From: an uncultured Phycisphaerales bacterium
Lineage (GTDB): Bacteria; Planctomycetota; Phycisphaerae; Tepidisphaerales; Tepidisphaeraceae
NCBI GenBank assembly: GCA_963755915.1
Contig: CAVWLP010000002.1
Location: 2,400,001-2,464,000 of the forward strand
Length of the DNA: 64,000 nt
Direction of reading: 5' to 3'
The translations under genes and the position numbers were made by a program. Below the pieces are notes generated by a model. The model made no database searches, was not told where the DNA came from, and saw only the letters and a program-made list of their open reading frames with translations. Shown one piece after another: positions 4,925 through 31,457 of this stretch (its first letter is position 1; every line of letters begins with the position of its first letter).

Positions 4925-5003
4925 GGGGGAATCGGAAAGCGCCCGACAAGTGGGGCGGCTACACGGGGAGAATTGGATCGTGGTTTGTGAAGCGTGTGGT
5001 TTG

Positions 5004-6107
5004 ATGAAACGATTTCTGGTGATTTTCTGGTTTTTGTTCGCGGCAAGCGCGAATGCGCAATCAACGCTTCCTTCGTGTTGTGCGGCGTTGCCGCGGCGCG
5101 TTTCGTCGAGTGCTGCGACGATGCCGAGCGGGAAGGATTCGGTTCCGCGTGGTGCGCCGGCGGACATGGTGTGGATTCCCGGCGGTGAGTTTGTCATGGG
5201 GGCGGCGGATTGCGATCAAGATGCGCGGAGTGATGAGCGTCCGACTCACCGCGTCAAACTCGACGGGTTTTGGATCGATCGGACGCTGGTCACGAACGCC
5301 GAGTTTCGTAAGTTTGCCCTGGCGACGGGTTACGTGACGACGGCGGAGCGGGCGCCGGCGCTGGCCGACATCATGAAGCAGTTGCCGGCGGGGTCGGCGG
5401 CGCCCCCGGCGGAGGCGCTGGTGGCGGCTTCGCTGGTGTTTCATCCTACGGAGGGGCCTGTGCCGCTGGATAATCCGGGGCGGTGGTGGTCGTGGACGCC
5501 CGGGGCGAACTGGCGGCATCCTGAGGGGCCGGGGAGCAGCGTTGATGGGCAGGATAATTATCCTGTCGTGCAGGTTTCGTGGGATGATGCTTGTGCGTAT
5601 GCAAAGTGGGCGAAGAAGAGTTTGCCGACGGAGGCGCAGTGGGAATATGCGGCGCGAGGGGGATTGGCGGGGAAGAAATATTTCTGGGGGAATGAGGAGC
5701 CGACGGCAAGCAATCCACGCTGCAATTTCTGGCAGGGGCATTTTCCGGATGTGAATACGGCTGAGGATGGGTATGTGCTTCGAAGTCCGGTGAATGCATT
5801 TGCGCCCAATGGGTATGGGCTCTATGACATGGCCGGGAATGTGTGGGAGTGGTGCGGCGACTGGTATCGGGCTGATTATTATTCGGCGGCGGGTAACGGA
5901 AATAATCCGCAGGGGCCGGCCGAAAGCTTCGATCCCGATGAGCCAACGGCGCCCAAGCGCGTTTTGCGCGGCGGGTCATTTTTGTGCAACGAGGCGTATT
6001 GTTTCAGCTATCGGGTCGCAGCCCGAATGAAAAACTCTCCGGATACGTCCGCGGATCATATTGGATTTCGGTGCGTGACGACTGCAAAGTTGTGGGGAGC
6101 GAAATAG
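5004..6107 (+). CDS. Formylglycine-generating enzyme (SUMF1/FGE) family protein with signal peptide
   Basis: IPGGEFVMG, PVVQVSWDDA, LPTEAQWEYAARGG, NGYGLYDMAGNVWEWC, RGGSFLCNEAYC and IGFRC. Directly downstream of the sulfatase. Confidence 0.93.
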   Translation: MKRFLVIFWFLFAASANAQSTLPSCCAALPRRVSSSAATMPSGKDSVPRGAPADMVWIPGGEFVMGAADCDQDARSDERPTHRVKLDGFWIDRTLVTNAEFRKFALATGYVTTAERAPALADIMKQLPAGSAAPPAEALVAASLVFHPTEGPVPLDNPGRWWSWTPGANWRHPEGPGSSVDGQDNYPVVQVSWDDACAYAKWAKKSLPTEAQWEYAARGGLAGKKYFWGNEEPTASNPRCNFWQGHFPDVNTAEDGYVLRSPVNAFAPNGYGLYDMAGNVWEWCGDWYRADYYSAAGNGNNPQGPAESFDPDEPTAPKRVLRGGSFLCNEAYCFSYRVAARMKNSPDTSADHIGFRCVTTAKLWGAK

Positions 6108-12737: not shown

Positions 12738-12813
12738 TTGCGATCGTTTATAACGCATGGCGATCAGGTTGTTTACCAGTGCAATCGCACATGGCTTGAA
12801 AAAATGGTGAAGA

Positions 12814-12852
12814 CCCCCACCCTGGCCCTCCCCCGGAGTACCAGGGGAGGGG
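12814..12852. repeat. C/G-rich REP-like hairpin family CCCYCACCC-N3-CCCTCYCCC...GGGRGAGGG (representative copy)
   Basis: Related copies near 9075-9131, 13971-14040, 29836-29878, 35776-35846, 51290-51334 and 51741-51780; all intergenic. Confidence 0.78.
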
Positions 12853-12933
12853 AGGATGGGGGAAATGCGATTGCCCTGGGTGGTTGACGCTACTTTTCAC
12901 AATCCTCGGCTTCCGATACCATTGCGAACCGAT

Positions 12934-13872: not shown

Positions 13873-14080
13873 TGAGCGAGAAATCCGAAACCCGAAATCC
13901 GAATGACGAATCAAATCCGAATGACGAAATCAGAATGGGTGTGCTGGAATCTCAACCGATAACAATTCGGCCCCCACCCTAACCCTCCCCTCTTCGAGCC
14001 TGAGCCTCAGAGCCGAAGGCCGGAGTACAAGGGGAGGGGATAAAGAGGGAGAGCTTGCAGTTGTTTTTTCAGAGGTTTTC

Positions 14081-25537: not shown

Positions 25538-26455
25538 GTGAGGATTCTGGTTACCGGCGGAGCCGGATTCATCGGGTCGAACTTGGCCATCGAACTTGCT
25601 TCGGCTGGCCATGAGGTTGCAATCGCGGACGATTTCTCGTCGGCCTATTGGAAAAATCTGATCGATTTTCGGGGAGAGGTCGTAGCCGCTGATATCGCGG
25701 CCGACGCAACGCCGCTTACTCGTCTCGATCCCTGCCAGGTCATATATCATCAGGCCTCCATTACTGACACGACCGTCACGGATCAGCGCAAGATGACGTT
25801 CAACAACGTTGAAGGGTTCCGAAACATCCTGGAACTGAGCAAGCAGTGGCAGAGCCAGGTGATCTGGGCGGGAAGCGCCAGCGTTTATGGCAGAACGCCG
25901 GCGCCAACGAAGGAGTCGGTAAAATCCGATCCGCTCAATGTCTACGCTTACTCGAAGCTGGCGATGGAGCATCTGGCGGATCGATATCGATCCAAGCTCC
26001 AGCGCGACATTGTCGGATTGAGATATTTCAATGTGTATGGGCCAGGGGAGGATCACAAGGGGAAATTCGCCAGCATGATTCATCAGCTCGCCAAACAGAT
26101 GCGAGCCGGCAAGCGTCCGCGAATTTTTACGGCCGGGCAGCAACGCCGGGATTTCGTGTACGTGGCGGACGTGGTGCAGGCGAATATTTCGGCGATCAAA
26201 TCGACCCGCGGCGGAGTGTTCAACATCGGCAGCGGGGCGTCGTGGTCATTCAATGAGGTGGTCGTCCAGCTCAACCGGGTGCTGGAAACAAAATTGGAGC
26301 CGGATTATTTCGAAAATCCCTACAGTTTCACGCAGGATTGGACCGAAGCGGATTTAACGGAATCGAAGCGGTGCCTGGGCTATGAGCCGCGGTATGATCT
26401 TGCCAAAGGGATCGACGCCTACCTGAAAAGCGGGCAACTGGGAGTTGGCCGATGA
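25538..26455 (+). CDS. hldD: ADP-L-glycero-D-manno-heptose 6-epimerase-like NAD-dependent epimerase
   Basis: VTGGAGFIGSN, SITDTT, PLNVYAYSK, GLRYFNVYGPGEDHKGKFASM and QRRDFVYV. Confidence 0.85.
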   Translation: MRILVTGGAGFIGSNLAIELASAGHEVAIADDFSSAYWKNLIDFRGEVVAADIAADATPLTRLDPCQVIYHQASITDTTVTDQRKMTFNNVEGFRNILELSKQWQSQVIWAGSASVYGRTPAPTKESVKSDPLNVYAYSKLAMEHLADRYRSKLQRDIVGLRYFNVYGPGEDHKGKFASMIHQLAKQMRAGKRPRIFTAGQQRRDFVYVADVVQANISAIKSTRGGVFNIGSGASWSFNEVVVQLNRVLETKLEPDYFENPYSFTQDWTEADLTESKRCLGYEPRYDLAKGIDAYLKSGQLGVGR

Positions 26456-27300
26456 GCGAATTGATCTGGATCAACGGGGAAATCATGCCGCTGAATGAAG
26501 CGCGCATCGGCGTCGAGGATCGGGGGTTTCAGTTTGCTGATGGGGTCTACGAAGTCGTCCGGATTTACAACGGCAAACTGTTTGCGCTCGACGCCCACCT
26601 TCAGCGATTGGTGAAATCTGCGGAAGGGATCGAGCTGAAGCTGCCGGTTGCGGCGGGGCAGTTGCGCGGGGAGATTGGGAAATTCGTCGCGCGGAATCCA
26701 CTTGCGGATGGGATGATCTATCTTCAGCTCACCCGCGGGGCGGCGCCGCGGAATCACGCGTTTCCGGATTGCGGGCCGACCCTGCTGTTTTATGCGCGGG
26801 AGCTGGATCCGCTGGGCGAGCCTGCCAAGTCGCAGGGGATTCGGTTGATAACTGTCGCGGATGAGCGATGGAAGCGGTGCTGGATCAAGTCGATCGCGCT
26901 GCTTCCGAATGTGCTGGCGAAGAATAAGGCGCTGGCCGCCGGCGCGGATGAAGCGGTGTTCATCGACAACGGCGTGGTGACGGAATGCTCGGCGAGCAAC
27001 GTGTTCATCGTGCGCGGGCGGCGGCTTCTGACTCATGCCGTTGGGCCCAAGGTGCTTCCGGGAATCACCCGGGCGATTCTTCTGGAGCTTGCACCCACGG
27101 TTGGCCTGAGCGTGGGCGAAGAGGCGTTCAGCGAAGATGAAGCGATCCATGCGGATGAGGTTTTCATCACCAGCACGACGCGGGAGATTTCGTGGGTTTT
27201 GCGGTGGAATCAGACGCAGATCGGGTCGGGGAAGTGCGGGCCGCATACGCTGGCGCTGCATGAGGCGCTTCGCAAACGCGTCGCCGGCGAGACGGCGTAA
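26452..27300 (+). CDS. dat: Class IV aminotransferase (D-amino-acid transaminase-like)
   Basis: EDRGFQFADGVYEV, HLQRL, YLQLTRG, IKSIALLPNVLAK, ECSASNVF and LPGITR. Confidence 0.88.
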   Translation: MSELIWINGEIMPLNEARIGVEDRGFQFADGVYEVVRIYNGKLFALDAHLQRLVKSAEGIELKLPVAAGQLRGEIGKFVARNPLADGMIYLQLTRGAAPRNHAFPDCGPTLLFYARELDPLGEPAKSQGIRLITVADERWKRCWIKSIALLPNVLAKNKALAAGADEAVFIDNGVVTECSASNVFIVRGRRLLTHAVGPKVLPGITRAILLELAPTVGLSVGEEAFSEDEAIHADEVFITSTTREISWVLRWNQTQIGSGKCGPHTLALHEALRKRVAGETA

Positions 27301-27360
27301 GGATTTTCAGCCCTGCTCAGTTGACGATTTTTAGCCAAATTTCTGGCACTTTGCAACAGG

Positions 27361-27382
27361 TGTGGGCGCTGATGTGGGCGCG
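27361..27382 (+). repeat. Paired direct repeat TGTGGGCGC (12-bp period), putative integrase arm-type site
   Basis: TGTGGGCGCtgATGTGGGCGCG; the same pair occurs at 28788-28810. Confidence 0.65.
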
Positions 27383-27601
27383 TGAATGCGGGTATGCCTA
27401 CAGCGTAATCAGCATTGTCTGAGATGAAACCGAAAAGGAGGCCAAGACCAATTCGAAAAACGACCGCCTCAGTTTCATCCAATACCCGTTCACCTTTCGA
27501 TGTTTCCCACATTCAAATATGATCGGTTAATTACGTGAAATAGCATTATGTGATTAGGTTCTCGGATGACGCCTTGGGGCCAGCCTTCAGGCCTTCGCGC
27601 T

Positions 27602-28033
27602 TCACTGAAAGAAGAGGCCGTGGTTCAGACCAAAGAATCCGGCCACGTTCGCGATGGCTGACTTGCTCCACTCTCGCTTGCCGCTCAACATGTCCGACAG
27701 GGCGCTCTGGGAAATGCCACGTTGCTTGGCAAAGGCATTCACACTCAGGCCGCGTTCGCCGAGCAGGTGTCGCACGACATCCGCCGCCGAAATGCCCGAC
27801 GTGTCCAACTGAAGATTCTGCTCACGCTCGTACGTCTCGATAAGGCCGACCAGAACCTTCTTGTAGTCGAGCACGTCCTTTCGCTTATCCCCAACGAGGC
27901 TACGAAGAGCCTGCTTGGATTGTCGGTGTTCCTCGGCGTTGTGGATGGGCCGGAGCGGATAGAGATTCACGATCAGGTTGAGGTAGGGGTCGAGGCCCGT
28001 TGACGCGCCCGAGTTCTTGGTTTTTGTTGTCAT
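27602..28033 (-). CDS. higA: HigA-family HTH antitoxin
   Basis: YPLRPIHNAEEH, LIETYE and an Xre HTH (ISQSALSDMLSGKR...FFG). Lies directly downstream of higB. Confidence 0.88.
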   Translation of the reverse strand: MTTKTKNSGASTGLDPYLNLIVNLYPLRPIHNAEEHRQSKQALRSLVGDKRKDVLDYKKVLVGLIETYEREQNLQLDTSGISAADVVRHLLGERGLSVNAFAKQRGISQSALSDMLSGKREWSKSAIANVAGFFGLNHGLFFQ

Positions 28034-28034
28034 C

Positions 28035-28343
28035 TCAGTATCTCTCTTTCCACAAGTTCTTGTCGTACTCGGCGTGCGTAGGAACTTCTAACACCTCAAC
28101 GAATTGAGCGTCGTAGTCAATGACGGTCAGGAGGCGGTAATTGCCGCCCTTGGTGTTGAACACTGTCACGACAGTCTTGCTTTTCAGCGTTACGCCATCG
28201 GCCGAGGAATATGTCTTCCTCACGTTCTGCAAGCTGTGCCACTCCGACTCATCAACGGCCTTGGCCCACACGTCAAGCCATGTTTTGAGCGGCTTGTTCT
28301 TTTTGCCCACCGCTGTCAGCACGTCCTGCCCGATCAGCGTCAT
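28035..28343 (-). CDS. higB: HigB-family toxin (RelE-fold mRNA interferase)
   Basis: W..W...W.S...V..TYSSAD, VFNTKGGNYRL and THAEYDK; toxin-first gene order. Confidence 0.9.
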   Translation of the reverse strand: MTLIGQDVLTAVGKKNKPLKTWLDVWAKAVDESEWHSLQNVRKTYSSADGVTLKSKTVVTVFNTKGGNYRLLTVIDYDAQFVEVLEVPTHAEYDKNLWKERY

Positions 28344-28344
28344 T

Positions 28345-28378
28345 ATCACATTATGCGATAGATCGGCCGAAAAGTCAA
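28345..28378 (-). promoter_or_regulatory. higBA sigma70 promoter with overlapping palindromic operator; probably leaderless
   Basis: Minus strand reads TTGACT-17 bp-CATAAT-6 nt-ATG. The palindrome ATCACAT-T-ATGCGAT at 28345-28359 overlaps the -10 box. Confidence 0.7.
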
Positions 28379-28787
28379 GAAACATTAGCCGATCTGGCGT
28401 GCGTTCCGAGCAAGTTTTACGCCCCCCTCAGTCACCGGCTCGAAATGATTCCTGATCTCGACCCTGATGACCTCCCGACGCCAAGAACTGATACCCCAGA
28501 CCGCAACGGCTGCTCCCAAAATCGTCGCCGCACTTGCCGCTACGCTCACCCATCCCCGCAAATCCGATGGCATGAAAGTCCCCATTCTCCCACAATAGCC
28601 CATCACAGATACTGGGGAATGCGACCGATACGCAGCATTTGGTTATGACGATCCGGTTCGATAAGGAGAGTCATTTCTGGCCGCGCCGAGGTGGGACTTG
28701 CCCGAGGCACAAAGTACGAAACCGTCACAGAAATGACCCACAGATCGATTAAGGCACGACGGAGAGGCTGGACGTTTCACCCTATCC

Positions 28788-28810
28788 ATGTGGGCGCGTA
28801 TGTGGGCGCG
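28788..28810 (+). repeat. Paired direct repeat ATGTGGGCGCG x2, putative integrase arm-type site
   Basis: ATGTGGGCGCG-T-ATGTGGGCGCG, about 120 bp inside the tRNA fragment. Confidence 0.65.
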
Positions 28811-28931
28811 ACAGCTAATAAATCGTGCTCGTATTGCGTCAAATGCACCATTTTTTTGAATTGCAGAAGTGCGCAGCAGAAAACTCCGGTTATGGCCGGA
28901 GTTTGTGCAGTTTTAGCTGCCTTCTGGTCAA

Positions 28932-28965
28932 TGGGCGGAGCCGGAATTGAACCGGCGACACATGG
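28932..28965 (-). pseudogene. tRNA 3'-half fragment, tRNA-Phe-like (att site); not an intact tRNA
   Basis: Minus strand CCAT-GTGTC-GCCGG-TTCAATT-CCGGC-TCCGCCC-A gives variable loop, T arm, acceptor 3' strand and discriminator. There is no D arm or 5' acceptor strand upstream. Confidence 0.85.
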
Positions 28966-28969
28966 TTTT

Positions 28970-29164
28970 TTACATCCTGGGGTCGCCGGGTGTTTCAATG
29001 TCGGGGTCGTCGCCCTTCAAATCGTTCAAAAGATCGACGTAATCGGCATCGTCTAATTCGAACCAATCGGGGATTGCGGCGACGGCGCAGCCGCGGCGCT
29101 CGGCGAGGGCTTCGAGGATCCGTTGGCGGAGGTCGGGATCGGTTATTTCGCGGATGCGGATCAT
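28970..29164 (-). CDS. Hypothetical acidic protein, 64 aa
   Basis: ATG 11 bp after the DUF5615 stop, with plausible composition; no recognised family. Confidence 0.55.
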   Translation of the reverse strand: MIRIREITDPDLRQRILEALAERRGCAVAAIPDWFELDDADYVDLLNDLKGDDPDIETPGDPRM

Positions 29165-29174
29165 AACTAACGGT

Positions 29175-29525
29175 TCAGGGTGTACGGATGCGCATGACTG
29201 CCGGTGATATGACTATGAATGCACGTTCAAGCCGGGAAGCGTGTTCGCGAACGGCATCGCGGACTAATTTCGCCTTGGTGTCGCTGGACAAACCCGACAA
29301 ACGCAGAAGCACCACGCCGGAATGAACTTTTTTTTGGCGGTAAACGAGCAGTCCAAAATCCTTGTCATCAGTCAGTAGCATTGACTGCGTTTTATTCGCC
29401 AGTTCAAGGACGCGGTCGTCATCCATGCCACGGCCGATTTCTTTGATGGACTGAACGCTATGGCCGTCGGCGCGCAAAGCGTCGATTATCGAGGCATCGA
29501 CGTTTTCGTCAGCAAGAAAATTCAC
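29175..29525 (-). CDS. DUF5615 PIN-like toxin
   Basis: FLADENV, LRADGH, DDRVL, LLTDDKDFG and HSGVVLLRL. Overlaps the DUF433 stop. Confidence 0.9.
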   Translation of the reverse strand: MNFLADENVDASIIDALRADGHSVQSIKEIGRGMDDDRVLELANKTQSMLLTDDKDFGLLVYRQKKVHSGVVLLRLSGLSSDTKAKLVRDAVREHASRLERAFIVISPAVMRIRTP

Positions 29526-29758
29526 ACGGCCGTTCCACGAATCGGATAAACGACATCCGACCCCAGTGATTTAGCCGCGAAATCGAGCGCCGCGCGAATT
29601 GCCGGTTCTGTCAAATGCGGAAAGGCTTCGAGAATCTGTTCGACTGTTTCACCCGCGGCGAGTCTTTCGAGGATCAACTCCACAGTGATTCTGGTGCCTG
29701 CGATGACCGGTTTGCCCATCATGATGCGAGGATTGGCTTCAATAACTGGTTCTGCCAT
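29522..29758 (-). CDS. DUF433 antitoxin
   Basis: NPRIMMGKPVIAGTRITVELIL...GET.EQILEAFPHLT...IRAAL. Confidence 0.92.
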   Translation of the reverse strand: MAEPVIEANPRIMMGKPVIAGTRITVELILERLAAGETVEQILEAFPHLTEPAIRAALDFAAKSLGSDVVYPIRGTAV

Positions 29759-29893
29759 ATAGGGTCCGTATATTGGGGCTTATTATACCCGCCGAGATGG
29801 AACTAGCACGAGGCAGCGACATCCATTTGATAAACCTAACCCCGCCGCCGCATTCCCCAGAGTTCAGGGGAGGGGGTAAGAGGGGGAAGACAT

Positions 29894-31457
29894 TTATAGT
29901 CCATATTCCTTCCACCGCCGCTCGATCAACTCTCGGGTTTTCTGATCCACCTCCAGCTCCTTCGGCCAGGTCCGCACCTTCCCCTCGGCGGGCCATTTCA
30001 CGGTGGCATCGAAACCGATTTTGCTCCCCGCCCCCAATTCCGGGCTGGCGTGGTCGAGAATGTCGACCGGGCCATGAACGATTTCGCTGTCGCGCTGGGG
30101 ATCGCAATTGGAGAAGAGGTGGAAGAGGACATCCTGCTCGTCGTGAACATTCACGTTCTCGTCCACCACGATGATGAATTTCGTGAACGACATCTGGCCC
30201 GCTCCCCAGATCGCGTGCATGACCCGGCGAGCCTGCCAGGGATATTCCTTGCGAATCTTGATGAAGGCGCAGTTATGGAACACGCCGCTGATCGGCAGGC
30301 TGTAATCGACGATGTCGGGAACGATGGTGCGCAGCAGGGGCAGGAAAATCCGTTCGGTGGCCTTGCCGAGGAAATAATCTTCCATCGGCGGCTTGCCGAC
30401 GATCGTCGTCGGATAGATCGGATTTTTTCGGTGAGTGATGGCGGTGATGTGATAAGCCGGATACCAGTCGGCAAGGCTGTAGAATCCGGTGTGATCGCCG
30501 AACGGGCCTTCCATGAGCTTTTCGCTGGGGTCGACGAATCCTTCGATGACGATTTCGGCGTTGGCCGGGACTTCAAGGGGGATCGTCCGGCAGGGGACGA
30601 GTCTGGATCCCGCCGTCGTTGAGGAATCCGGCAAAGAGCAGCTCTTCAATGCCAGGCGGCAGTGGGGCGGTGGCGGCGTAGGGCAAAACGCTTTCGCCGC
30701 CGAGCACGATTGCCAGGGGCATTTTCTCGCCGCGCTTTTGATACATGCGGAAATGGCGGGCGCCGTCGTGGTGCATGTGCCAGTGCATGGCGCATTTGCG
30801 CGGGCCGAACTGCTGGACGCGGTACATGCCGATGTTGCGGTCGCCGGTCTCGGGGTTCTGGGTGAAGATTCCGCCGAAGGTGATATAGCGGCCGGTGCCT
30901 TTTTCGGTGAGCTTTTCGCAGGCGGCGGGATCGAAGACCTGGCCGCTGTCGACAAATCGCCATCGAGGGGCCAGCATTGAATGAGCGGCAGACGATTCAA
31001 ATCGGCCTTTTCGCCTTCGAGCAGGACCTGCTGGCAAATTCCGGTTGCGGACGGATTTTGGGGGAAAACTGCCGAGCTTCAGAAGATCCGGCAGCTTCTT
31101 CATTTTCTCGAGCAGCGTCGTGGGAATTTCCGGTTTCACAAGGGCCTGGACGCGTTCGGCAAGCTCGGCCAGCGAATTCGTTCCCAGCGCCTTGTTGACG
31201 CGCCAGTAGGATCCAAAGGTGTTGATGGCGACGGGAATGTCTGAGCCCGCGACATTTTCGAAGAGCAGTGCCTTGCCCCCGAGTTTCGAGGCGGCGGACT
31301 GGTCGAGCTCCTGATGGCCGTGCGGGGCGGGTGTTCGGGACATGCGGCCGGCGATGGCGGCGATTTCCAGCTTCGGATCGACTGTCGCCGGTACTTTGGC
31401 GAGTTCGCCTTCGCGCTCCAGAAGGGCCAAAAAGTCGGAAAGGGTTTCGGTGGACAT
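29894..31457 (-). CDS. UbiD-family prFMN-dependent decarboxylase, menaquinone-biosynthesis type (two frameshifts)
   Basis: GKALLFENV, NTFGS, RNIGMYRVQ, MHWH, VPANAEIVIEG, EGPFGDHTGFY, GKPPMED and SKIGFDAT across ORFs 30573..31457 and 29894..31000. Confidence 0.9.

Follow-up and report, generated by a model that had tools for sequence, protein, structure and literature searches.

Between the convergent genes dat and a 64-amino-acid (aa) open reading frame (ORF), the genome of an uncultured Phycisphaerales bacterium carries a 1.66-kb element that encodes the toxin-antitoxin pair higBA and has pieces of tRNA-Phe at its two ends. The element lies in the stretch of DNA analysed here, hereafter the window (64,000 nucleotides; contig CAVWLP010000002.1, positions 2,400,001 to 2,464,000, of GenBank assembly GCA_963755915.1). 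We consider it likely that an element with a tRNA-Phe-type attachment site (attP) integrated site-specifically at a pseudo-attB, was then stranded there and has been kept through higBA. Site-specific integration at a non-tRNA secondary site, with the crossover in or beside the seven bases AAAATCC, is well supported by the tRNA pieces at both ends and by paired repeats that are unique to the element and spaced much as in two intact islands of relatives. The original prediction, made from the letters of the window alone, had proposed such secondary-site integration through a split tRNA-Phe attP. It had named three findings that would speak against it, namely breakpoints elsewhere in relatives that lack higBA, a terminal fragment that matches no tRNA-Phe, and paired repeats that are common throughout the genome with no link to integrases, and all three comparisons came out in its favour. 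Every sequence that it described was found in its place.

An insertion between two convergent genes

The genome that holds the window (G000) consists of 3 contigs with 6,626,754 bases, and the assembly is 81% complete. For the comparison of the insertion site, 40 relatives were searched with window positions 26000-30200, and five congener loci were read at the position. An unpublished genome, G014, is counted in the tallies of relatives, family and order given here and below; no specific claim depends on it.

In the window, 1.66 kb (27308-28963) separates the stop codon of dat (plus strand) from that of the 64-aa ORF (minus strand). The two stop codons are only 7 bp apart in G003 and 6 bp apart in G011, which are congeners without higBA. 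The stop codons of the congeners align with those of the window, so the insert fills exactly the short spacer between the two convergent genes. Window 27308-28963 is an insertion, and its breakpoints are those that the original prediction gave. Unrelated inserts of about 200, 100 and 660 bp occupy the same spot in G010, G012 and G004, respectively. The insert of G010 (L011) is a long-hairpin element, that of G012 (L013) is the shortest, and that of G004 (L014) contains a membrane-protein ORF and is flanked by direct repeats of about 15 nt of the 3' end of the 64-aa ORF.

The GC content of the element is 53.9%, as against 59-60% in its flanks. By blastn against the whole genome the element is single-copy in G000, and no second copy was found in G000 or in its nearest relative, G001. 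Logan contigs from four soil runs (X1-X4) of one study, possibly the source of the assembly, were compared with window 26400-29900. These short-read contigs bridge the window sequence across both junctions at 100% identity. Neither a joint across the element nor a circle junction was found in them; such contigs drop rare variants, so they are silent on excision.

Pieces of tRNA-Phe at both ends

On the minus strand, the right end of the element (28970 to 28932) is identical at 37 of 39 positions to nt 35-73 of the genome's own tRNA-Phe(GAA) gene (C2:1338880-1338952), in line with the match to tRNA-Phe that had been predicted. This gene is the best of 83 tRNA genes for the fragment, with a score of 35 against 17 for the runner-up, and blastn of the fragment against the whole genome gave an E value of 1.75e-09. 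Two positions do not match: the T of nt 39 is lacking in the element, and in the acceptor stem the element has C where the tRNA gene has T. On the minus strand the left end is GGGCTGAAAATCC, and within it CTGAAAATCC equals nt 32-41 of the tRNA. Past CTGAAAATCC, the left end runs directly into the complement of the dat stop codon.

The predicted cores are literally present as GGATTTT (27301-27307) and GGTTTTT (28964-28970), the last T of the latter (28970) already lying within the stop codon of the 64-aa ORF. Since G001 has an exact GGATTTT at the right junction, the right core of the window has lost one A. Seven bases, AAAATCC in the sense of the tRNA, are common to both junctions, and the right copy in the window is one base short. 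When the ends are joined, as the original prediction had done to rebuild part of a tRNA, they give a 42-nt block corresponding to nt 32-73. A block of the same extent flanks the integrase-bearing tRNA-Phe islands of G007 and G073 described below.

On the tRNA-sense strand the order is the 3' part, the interior of the element, and then the piece of nt 32-41. Such a permuted order is expected of a circular element opened at the core of its attP, and not of a gene split by an insertion. The 5' half of the tRNA (nt 1-31) is absent at the element, as had been noted from the sequence. ARAGORN found no tRNA gene in the window; the genuine tRNA-Phe gene lies at C2:1338880.

Two tRNA-Phe-like pieces on one strand might also be left by a former tRNA-Phe gene at this site that was split by a higBA insertion, a local rearrangement or a deletion. 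We regard this origin as very improbable, with the 3' part standing first and the nt 32-41 piece last, nt 1-31 nowhere to be found, and a 7-bp repeat bracketing the insert. In addition, all five congener loci are without a tRNA, dat and the ORF being either adjacent or split by unrelated inserts. The 7-bp direct repeat could itself be read as the target-site duplication of a transposon-like insertion, whose tRNA-like ends would be incidental cargo. This is hardly credible, as the element has no transposase and no terminal inverted repeats (a score of 7, where shuffled sequences averaged 6.6 and 218 of 500 of them reached at least this value), and as the tRNA continues inward from both copies of the repeat across the same seven bases, for which transposition gives no reason. 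Even when a former tRNA gene, transposition and chance are taken together, they make an improbable explanation.

Comparison with intact tRNA-Phe islands of relatives

Integration at the tRNA-Phe gene is frequent in this group. In several relatives, a complete tRNA-Phe gene is followed 3.6-12.6 kb downstream by a repeat of it that spans nt 26-32 to 73. The 3.6-kb island of G007 (L027) encodes an integrase (PF00589, 1.7e-08), an HTH_17 excisionase-like protein (1.6e-10) and a Rep protein (PF23343, 2.8e-08). The 4.1-kb island of G073 (L047) encodes an integrase (PF00589, 1.1e-04) that is 43% identical to that of G007. In both islands nt 32 is the first position of the downstream repeat, and beyond the end of the tRNA there is a hairpin with a T-run. 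Both also have tandem repeats with an 11-bp period, located at +119..+139 from the tRNA end and -85..-65 from the core in G007, and at +112..+131 and -81..-62 in G073.

Like these two islands, the window element has a tRNA block that starts at nt 32, a hairpin in the corresponding position and tandem repeats at near-equal distances (+122..+143 and -73..-51). This common layout is, in our view, the strongest evidence that the two ends of the element are the P' and P arms of one attP. The repeat units have a GCGCC centre in common with those of G007 and G073, but their sequences differ otherwise and their period is 12 bp instead of 11 bp. The elements of G007 and G073 sit in the tRNA-Phe gene, whereas the window element does not, and in place of the integrase, excisionase-like protein and Rep protein of G007 it has higBA.

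The repeats of the window element have the form TGTGGGCGC-N3-TGTGGGCGC and are located at 27361-27381 and 28789-28809, in one orientation. Exact tandem pairs of TGTGGGCGC occur twice in the 6,626,754 bases of the genome, both times inside the element, in agreement with the repeats that had been described inside both of its ends. The single 9-mer occurs 58 times in the genome, and 5 times in the window where 1.01 would be expected. Two loose matches to the tandem pair lie elsewhere in G000, at C2:121846 (L003) and C2:3346902 (L002). Family-wide scans covered 140 other genomes, in which the pair with at most one mismatch had 7 matches and was no commoner than a reversed control (about 24). Being unique in G000 and not above the control in the family, the pair is specific to the element and not a genomic motif. 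From their geometry, the tandem 9-mers are putative arm-type integrase-binding sites. The hairpin that had been noticed after the tRNA piece has a 9-bp stem (28881-28904); it was not called by a terminator scan, its T-run being too short.

Two other tRNA-Phe islands were read, of 12.6 kb in G010 (L028, 6777-19396) and 8.3 kb in G015 (L026, 8582-16853). They are bounded by tRNA repeats of 45-48 nt and contain very large ORFs (2508 and 1677 aa), and tblastn found no integrase in either of them. A further locus, L048 (G127:C1, about 4990-5225), has two orphan 3' fragments of tRNA-Phe separated by 145 bp, and the 10 kb read there contain no tRNA 5' half. Of these fragments, the second begins exactly at AAAATCC, which is the deduced crossover position.

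The deduced target site

When the outer flanks are brought together over a single copy of the seven bases, a site of 17 bp results, made of AGGAT, a 7-nt spacer and ATCCT. This deduced site is a 5+7+5 palindrome with the geometry of an anticodon stem-loop, and by our own count it matches the anticodon stem-loop of tRNA-Phe at 8-9 of 17 positions, depending on the register. The original prediction had also deduced a palindromic empty site, but the 5+6+5 spacing proposed for it gives way to 5+7+5 when the intact junction of G001 is used.

According to the account of ICEBs1 in PMC3715440, the primary attB of that element is a 17-bp stem-loop of 5+7+5 in a tRNA-Leu gene, its secondary sites deviate from the primary one at 2-12 of 17 positions, and the element excises from them at a reduced rate or not detectably. 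Like ICEBs1 as described there, the window element occupies a secondary site loosely resembling a 5+7+5 primary site, and poor excision strands ICEBs1 at such sites. ICEBs1, an autonomous conjugative element of 20 kb, has been studied at the bench, whereas the window element is 1.66 kb in length and known only from metagenome-assembled genomes.

Gene content of the element

The recognisable genes of the element are higB, higA and a 73-aa ORF, all on the minus strand (Table 1). The toxin gene higB precedes higA, which encodes a helix-turn-helix (HTH) antitoxin, in one operon with a single promoter-like site upstream. This site, TTGACT-N17-CATAAT, is the only sigma-70-like site in window 27200-29100 and lies directly upstream of the likely start of higB, the ATG at 28343. 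The open frame continues to 28385; the start at 28343 is preferred because G001 has no upstream ATG and the homologue in G015 starts at the equivalent Met. A 15-bp palindrome at 28345-28359 is conserved in G015 and is likely to be the operator bound by HigA. The 73-aa ORF may not be a gene. Whether the higB promoter region has a longer inverted similarity to the sequence downstream of higA was considered as well; this was rejected, as the score of 29 was not significant against shuffled sequence (mean 21.1, sd 3.8, max 39).

The higBA homologue of G015 (L026, G015:C124, 7597-8582) has 65% nucleotide identity and the same operator palindrome. It is located immediately 5' of the tRNA-Phe gene and divergent from it, outside the island that follows the tRNA. 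Relatives of HigA with readable context came from one locus per collection, L045 and L046. L045 (66% identity) is a solitary higA without a tRNA piece, and L046 (98% identity) has the structure found in G001. In an addiction role, higBA would serve to stabilise and retain the element.

Table 1. Features of the higBA element and its immediate flanks, with window coordinates.
Feature	Position	Strand	Remarks
dat, class IV aminotransferase, left flank	26452..27300	+	PF01063 5.9e-50; stop codon abuts the element
Left junction (attR-like)	27301..27310	-	CTGAAAATCC = tRNA-Phe nt 32-41; core GGATTTT 27301-27307 directly after the dat stop
P-arm tandem repeat, two 9-mers, 12-bp period	27361..27382	+	-73..-51 from the tRNA block; putative arm-type integrase sites
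15-bp near-palindrome downstream of higA	27540..27554	.	resembles the higB-promoter palindrome 28345-28359; absent from G001
higA, antitoxin, 143 aa	27602..28033	-	C-terminal Cro/C1-type HTH; HTH_3 6.5e-05, HTH_31 4.3e-05
higB, toxin (HigB family, RelE-like)	28035..28343	-	PF09907 3e-19, 69.5 bits against a cut-off of 27
higBA promoter, TTGACT-N17-CATAAT	28345..28378	-	site at 28378-28350; overlaps palindrome 28345-28359
73-aa ORF	28385..28606	-	one hydrophobic stretch; no family match; deleted in G001
P'-arm tandem repeat	28789..28810	+	+122..+143 beyond the tRNA 3' end; putative arm-type integrase sites
Hairpin, 9-bp stem	28881..28904	-	+29..+52 after the tRNA 3' end
Right junction (attL-like)	28932..28970	-	tRNA-Phe nt 35-73; core copy 28964-28969, one base short relative to G001
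64-aa ORF, right flank	28970..29164	-	conserved in the genus; stop codon abuts the element

Integrase, helper and parent elements

No integrase, excisionase or replication gene was found in the element, a Pfam search of its ORFs giving HigB and the HTH only. A tblastn search with the integrase of the G007 tRNA-Phe island detected no remnant in the element, the only match being the antisense of the tRNA stretch. The 840 bp outside higBA, read in all six frames, gave no trace of int, xis or rep. The absence of an integrase, part of the original prediction, was borne out by these searches.

In the whole of G000, tblastn found five tyrosine-integrase loci, four of which are, by coordinates, close to tRNA-Met, -Gly, -Cys and -Val. 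The genuine tRNA-Phe gene of G000 has no integrase downstream, and a tyrosine integrase beside tRNA-Phe, flanked by the same repeat pairs, for which the original prediction had suggested a search, was not found in this genome. No mobilising element adjoins the element in G000. The suggestion that the element might be mobilised in trans also found no support, as no cognate integrase, second copy or excision product was detected. With no integrase of its own and no helper in the assembled genome, the element is most likely stranded.

Several observations weigh against an integrated tRNA-Phe-type element. At the left end, just three bases (CTG) are both element-specific and tRNA-like, the other seven possibly coming from the target; the right core carries a one-base deletion; and none of the 140 other genomes of the order shows the acceptor-stem change of the tRNA piece. 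The ancestral empty site is a deduction, and the nearest genomes with an empty site are about 72% identical, with the spacers TCCCCTT and CCTCCG. None of the five tyrosine-integrase loci of G000 is at a tRNA-Phe gene in an assembly that is 81% complete, and there is no further exact tandem-repeat pair elsewhere in G000. DNA similar to the non-coding parts of the element was found in 0 of 140 other genomes of the family. A scan of metagenome contigs for an arm-repeat pair followed by the tRNA end at 113-143 nt gave 0 matches. The repeat pair was present in 82 viral stretches, and none of the 80 loci read adjoins a tRNA-Phe piece. Finally, it is by their geometry that the repeats are assigned a putative integrase-binding role.

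The exact 30-nt tRNA end had 0 matches in viral contigs. We also tried to use the acceptor-stem variant as a pointer to a donor lineage; this was abandoned, the tally in the order being nil and a later point mutation explaining the variant equally well.

The copy in G001 and the age of the cargo

G001 has higBA at the same site, without the parts corresponding to window 27298-27597 and 28395-28949. It retains the promoter with higB and higA, as well as 20 nt of the tRNA piece as a stub, and it has lost the dat stop codon, the left junction and both sets of repeats. By sequence, this looks like erosion down to a self-sufficient toxin-antitoxin module.

Window 27598-28394 is 97.9% identical to G001:C4:1163973-1164769 (17 of 797 bases differ), whereas seven syntenic flanking blocks over about 20 kb are 88-93% identical between the two genomes. 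At third codon positions, higBA differs at 6 of 245 (2.4%), with 1 of 143 (0.7%) in higA and 5 of 102 (4.9%) in higB. The corresponding values are 52 of 306 (17.0%) for the upstream epimerase gene, 55 of 281 (19.6%) for dat and 19 of 62 (30.6%) for the 64-aa ORF. Over the open frames as listed, ten of the 17 differences in the higBA block are amino-acid-changing, and the low divergence of higBA is therefore not explained by purifying selection. Directly beside the block the similarity is not unusually high, with 88% identity in the last 100 bp of dat and 87.5% in the 64-aa ORF.

With higBA less diverged than its flanks and constraint no explanation, the cargo would have been exchanged or acquired after the split of G000 and G001, and the comparison points to horizontal exchange of higBA after these lineages separated. 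The route may be either a separate insertion at the same pseudo-attB or the replacement of an ancestral resident copy. That the cargo is young relative to its flanks is the most interesting loose end of the analysis.

Within the preferred reading of site-specific integration, loss of the integrase after integration comes close to an even chance in our estimate. It is favoured by priors, given the islands of G010 and G015 that lack an integrase by tblastn and the ongoing deletion in G001. Somewhat more doubtful is that the integrase was never on the element and that integration took place in trans, in favour of which stand the lack of any remnant, the intact arms drawn tightly round one module, and two integrase-less copies with young cargo.

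In a fuller version of the latter, the element is a minimal hitchhiker made up of higBA and a complete tRNA-Phe-type attP. It would never have had an integrase, would be integrated and excised in trans by that of a resident or co-transferred tRNA-Phe element, and would have come into the lineages of G000 and G001 on separate occasions, at the same pseudo-attB. We think this unlikely, although a number of observations agree with it. The non-higBA sequence is free of int, xis and rep traces, both sets of arm repeats are intact, as is the whole tRNA block, and between them they tightly enclose a single self-contained module, and the copies of G000 and G001 are both without an integrase. The contrast between higBA (97.9% identity, 2.4% at third positions) and its flanks (88-93%, 17.0-30.6%) also fits, and with so many amino-acid changes it is not accounted for by constraint. 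However, no helper with matching arm repeats turned up in 141 genomes or in the metagenome and viral scans, a single insertion site is known with no second copy in either genome, and the G001 copy, whose arms are lost, cannot show independent arrival. Low divergence might also result from homologous replacement of an ancestral resident copy, and integrase loss looks common in the clade, as in the islands of G010 and G015.

In its most specific form, a 1.66-kb circle with just a complete tRNA-Phe-type attP and an addictive higBA would have borrowed the integrase of small tRNA-Phe elements and entered two Phycisphaerales species separately after their divergence. Separate entry after divergence is argued from third codon positions, where the divergence of the cargo is lower than that of the flanking chromosome by a factor of about 7-10; we hold this form to be rather improbable. 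If such a hitchhiker were real, it would be the smallest kind of integrative parasite, an att site with an addiction module.

Proposed origin and related systems

For the preferred reading, site-specific integration followed by stranding, the following course is proposed. A single recombination event of the tyrosine-integrase type would have left the footprint seen. A small circular element would have carried a tRNA-Phe attP of the anticodon-loop class, with a 42-nt copy of nt 32-73 followed by the hairpin; its tandem arm-type repeats would have stood about 60 nt away on one side and about 130 nt away on the other. The partner of this attP in recombination would have been a pseudo-attB and not the tRNA-Phe gene. 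This pseudo-attB, the 7 bp by which the stop codons of dat and the convergent 64-aa ORF were separated, may with its neighbouring bases have formed the 5+7+5 palindrome. Strand exchange in or next to AAAATCC (tRNA nt 35-41) would have split the attP into the present two ends. The element would then have been left encoding higB-higA only, with their own promoter and operator, and post-segregational killing by higBA would explain its persistence while the rest decays.

Williams, in 2002, is said to have described integration into tRNA genes at an anticodon-loop sublocation. Like tRNA-targeting elements of the anticodon-loop class, the window element has a tRNA 3' part in its attP, a crossover in the anticodon region, repeated (putative) arm-type sites on both sides of the core and a hairpin after the supplied tRNA end. 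Unlike them, it has no tyrosine integrase and lies outside any tRNA gene, and its ends are two attP halves in place of a restored tRNA and a displaced 3' fragment. In the Islander data, as given in PMC4383910, an anticodon-centred attP is present in 2083 of 3919 islands.

As in cis-mobilizable elements (CIMEs), att-type junctions (attL/attR) are kept in G000 without genes for integration or transfer. The CIMEs described so far occupy a primary att site, often in tandem with a mobilising integrative and conjugative element or integrative and mobilizable element, whereas the window element is alone at a secondary site. Also unlike a CIME, no decayed gene marks its descent from a larger element, though none would be expected after a clean deletion.

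HipAB in a Shewanella island is presented in PMC8978831 as a toxin-antitoxin pair that stabilises a genomic island. Like such modules, higBA is a type II pair inside an integrated element, and in G001 it is the sole part left. In comparison with islands of the HipAB type, the pair is the only recognisable cargo here, and its stabilising effect is presumed.

Each ingredient of the proposed history, that is, a CIME-like or decayed island, integration at a secondary site and retention by a toxin-antitoxin pair, is already described. We found no paper on mobile elements, integrases or genomic islands in Phycisphaerae, in a search too thin to claim that nothing is in print. The secondary-site event narrows the strand exchange of this tRNA-Phe integrase group to in or beside nt 35-41. 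The two copies indicate that an integrated element can shrink to its toxin-antitoxin core, G000 having full attP halves and G001 only promoter, higB and higA. Moreover, tRNA-Phe is a target of small integrative elements with int, xis and rep in uncultured Phycisphaerales from soil.

Other features of the window and the genome

Next to the 64-aa ORF, window 29175-29758 contains a DUF5615 (PIN-like)/DUF433 pair, which is probably a second toxin-antitoxin system; in G001 it is replaced by an unrelated 528-bp segment. Farther on, at 29894-31457 on the minus strand, there are two long overlapping ORFs (368 and 294 aa), which may be the two parts of a UbiD-like decarboxylase gene. Their arrangement would point to a frameshift or to an error in the assembly. 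Short dispersed repeats (about 80-110 bp) lie at 12777-12884 and 13964-14054, with many copies (85-97% identical) across the contigs of G001. Outside the window, G000 has 26 tRNA genes packed in about 2.9 kb (C2:3699152-3702079), including a second tRNA-Phe(GAA) gene that is unlike the fragment in the element.

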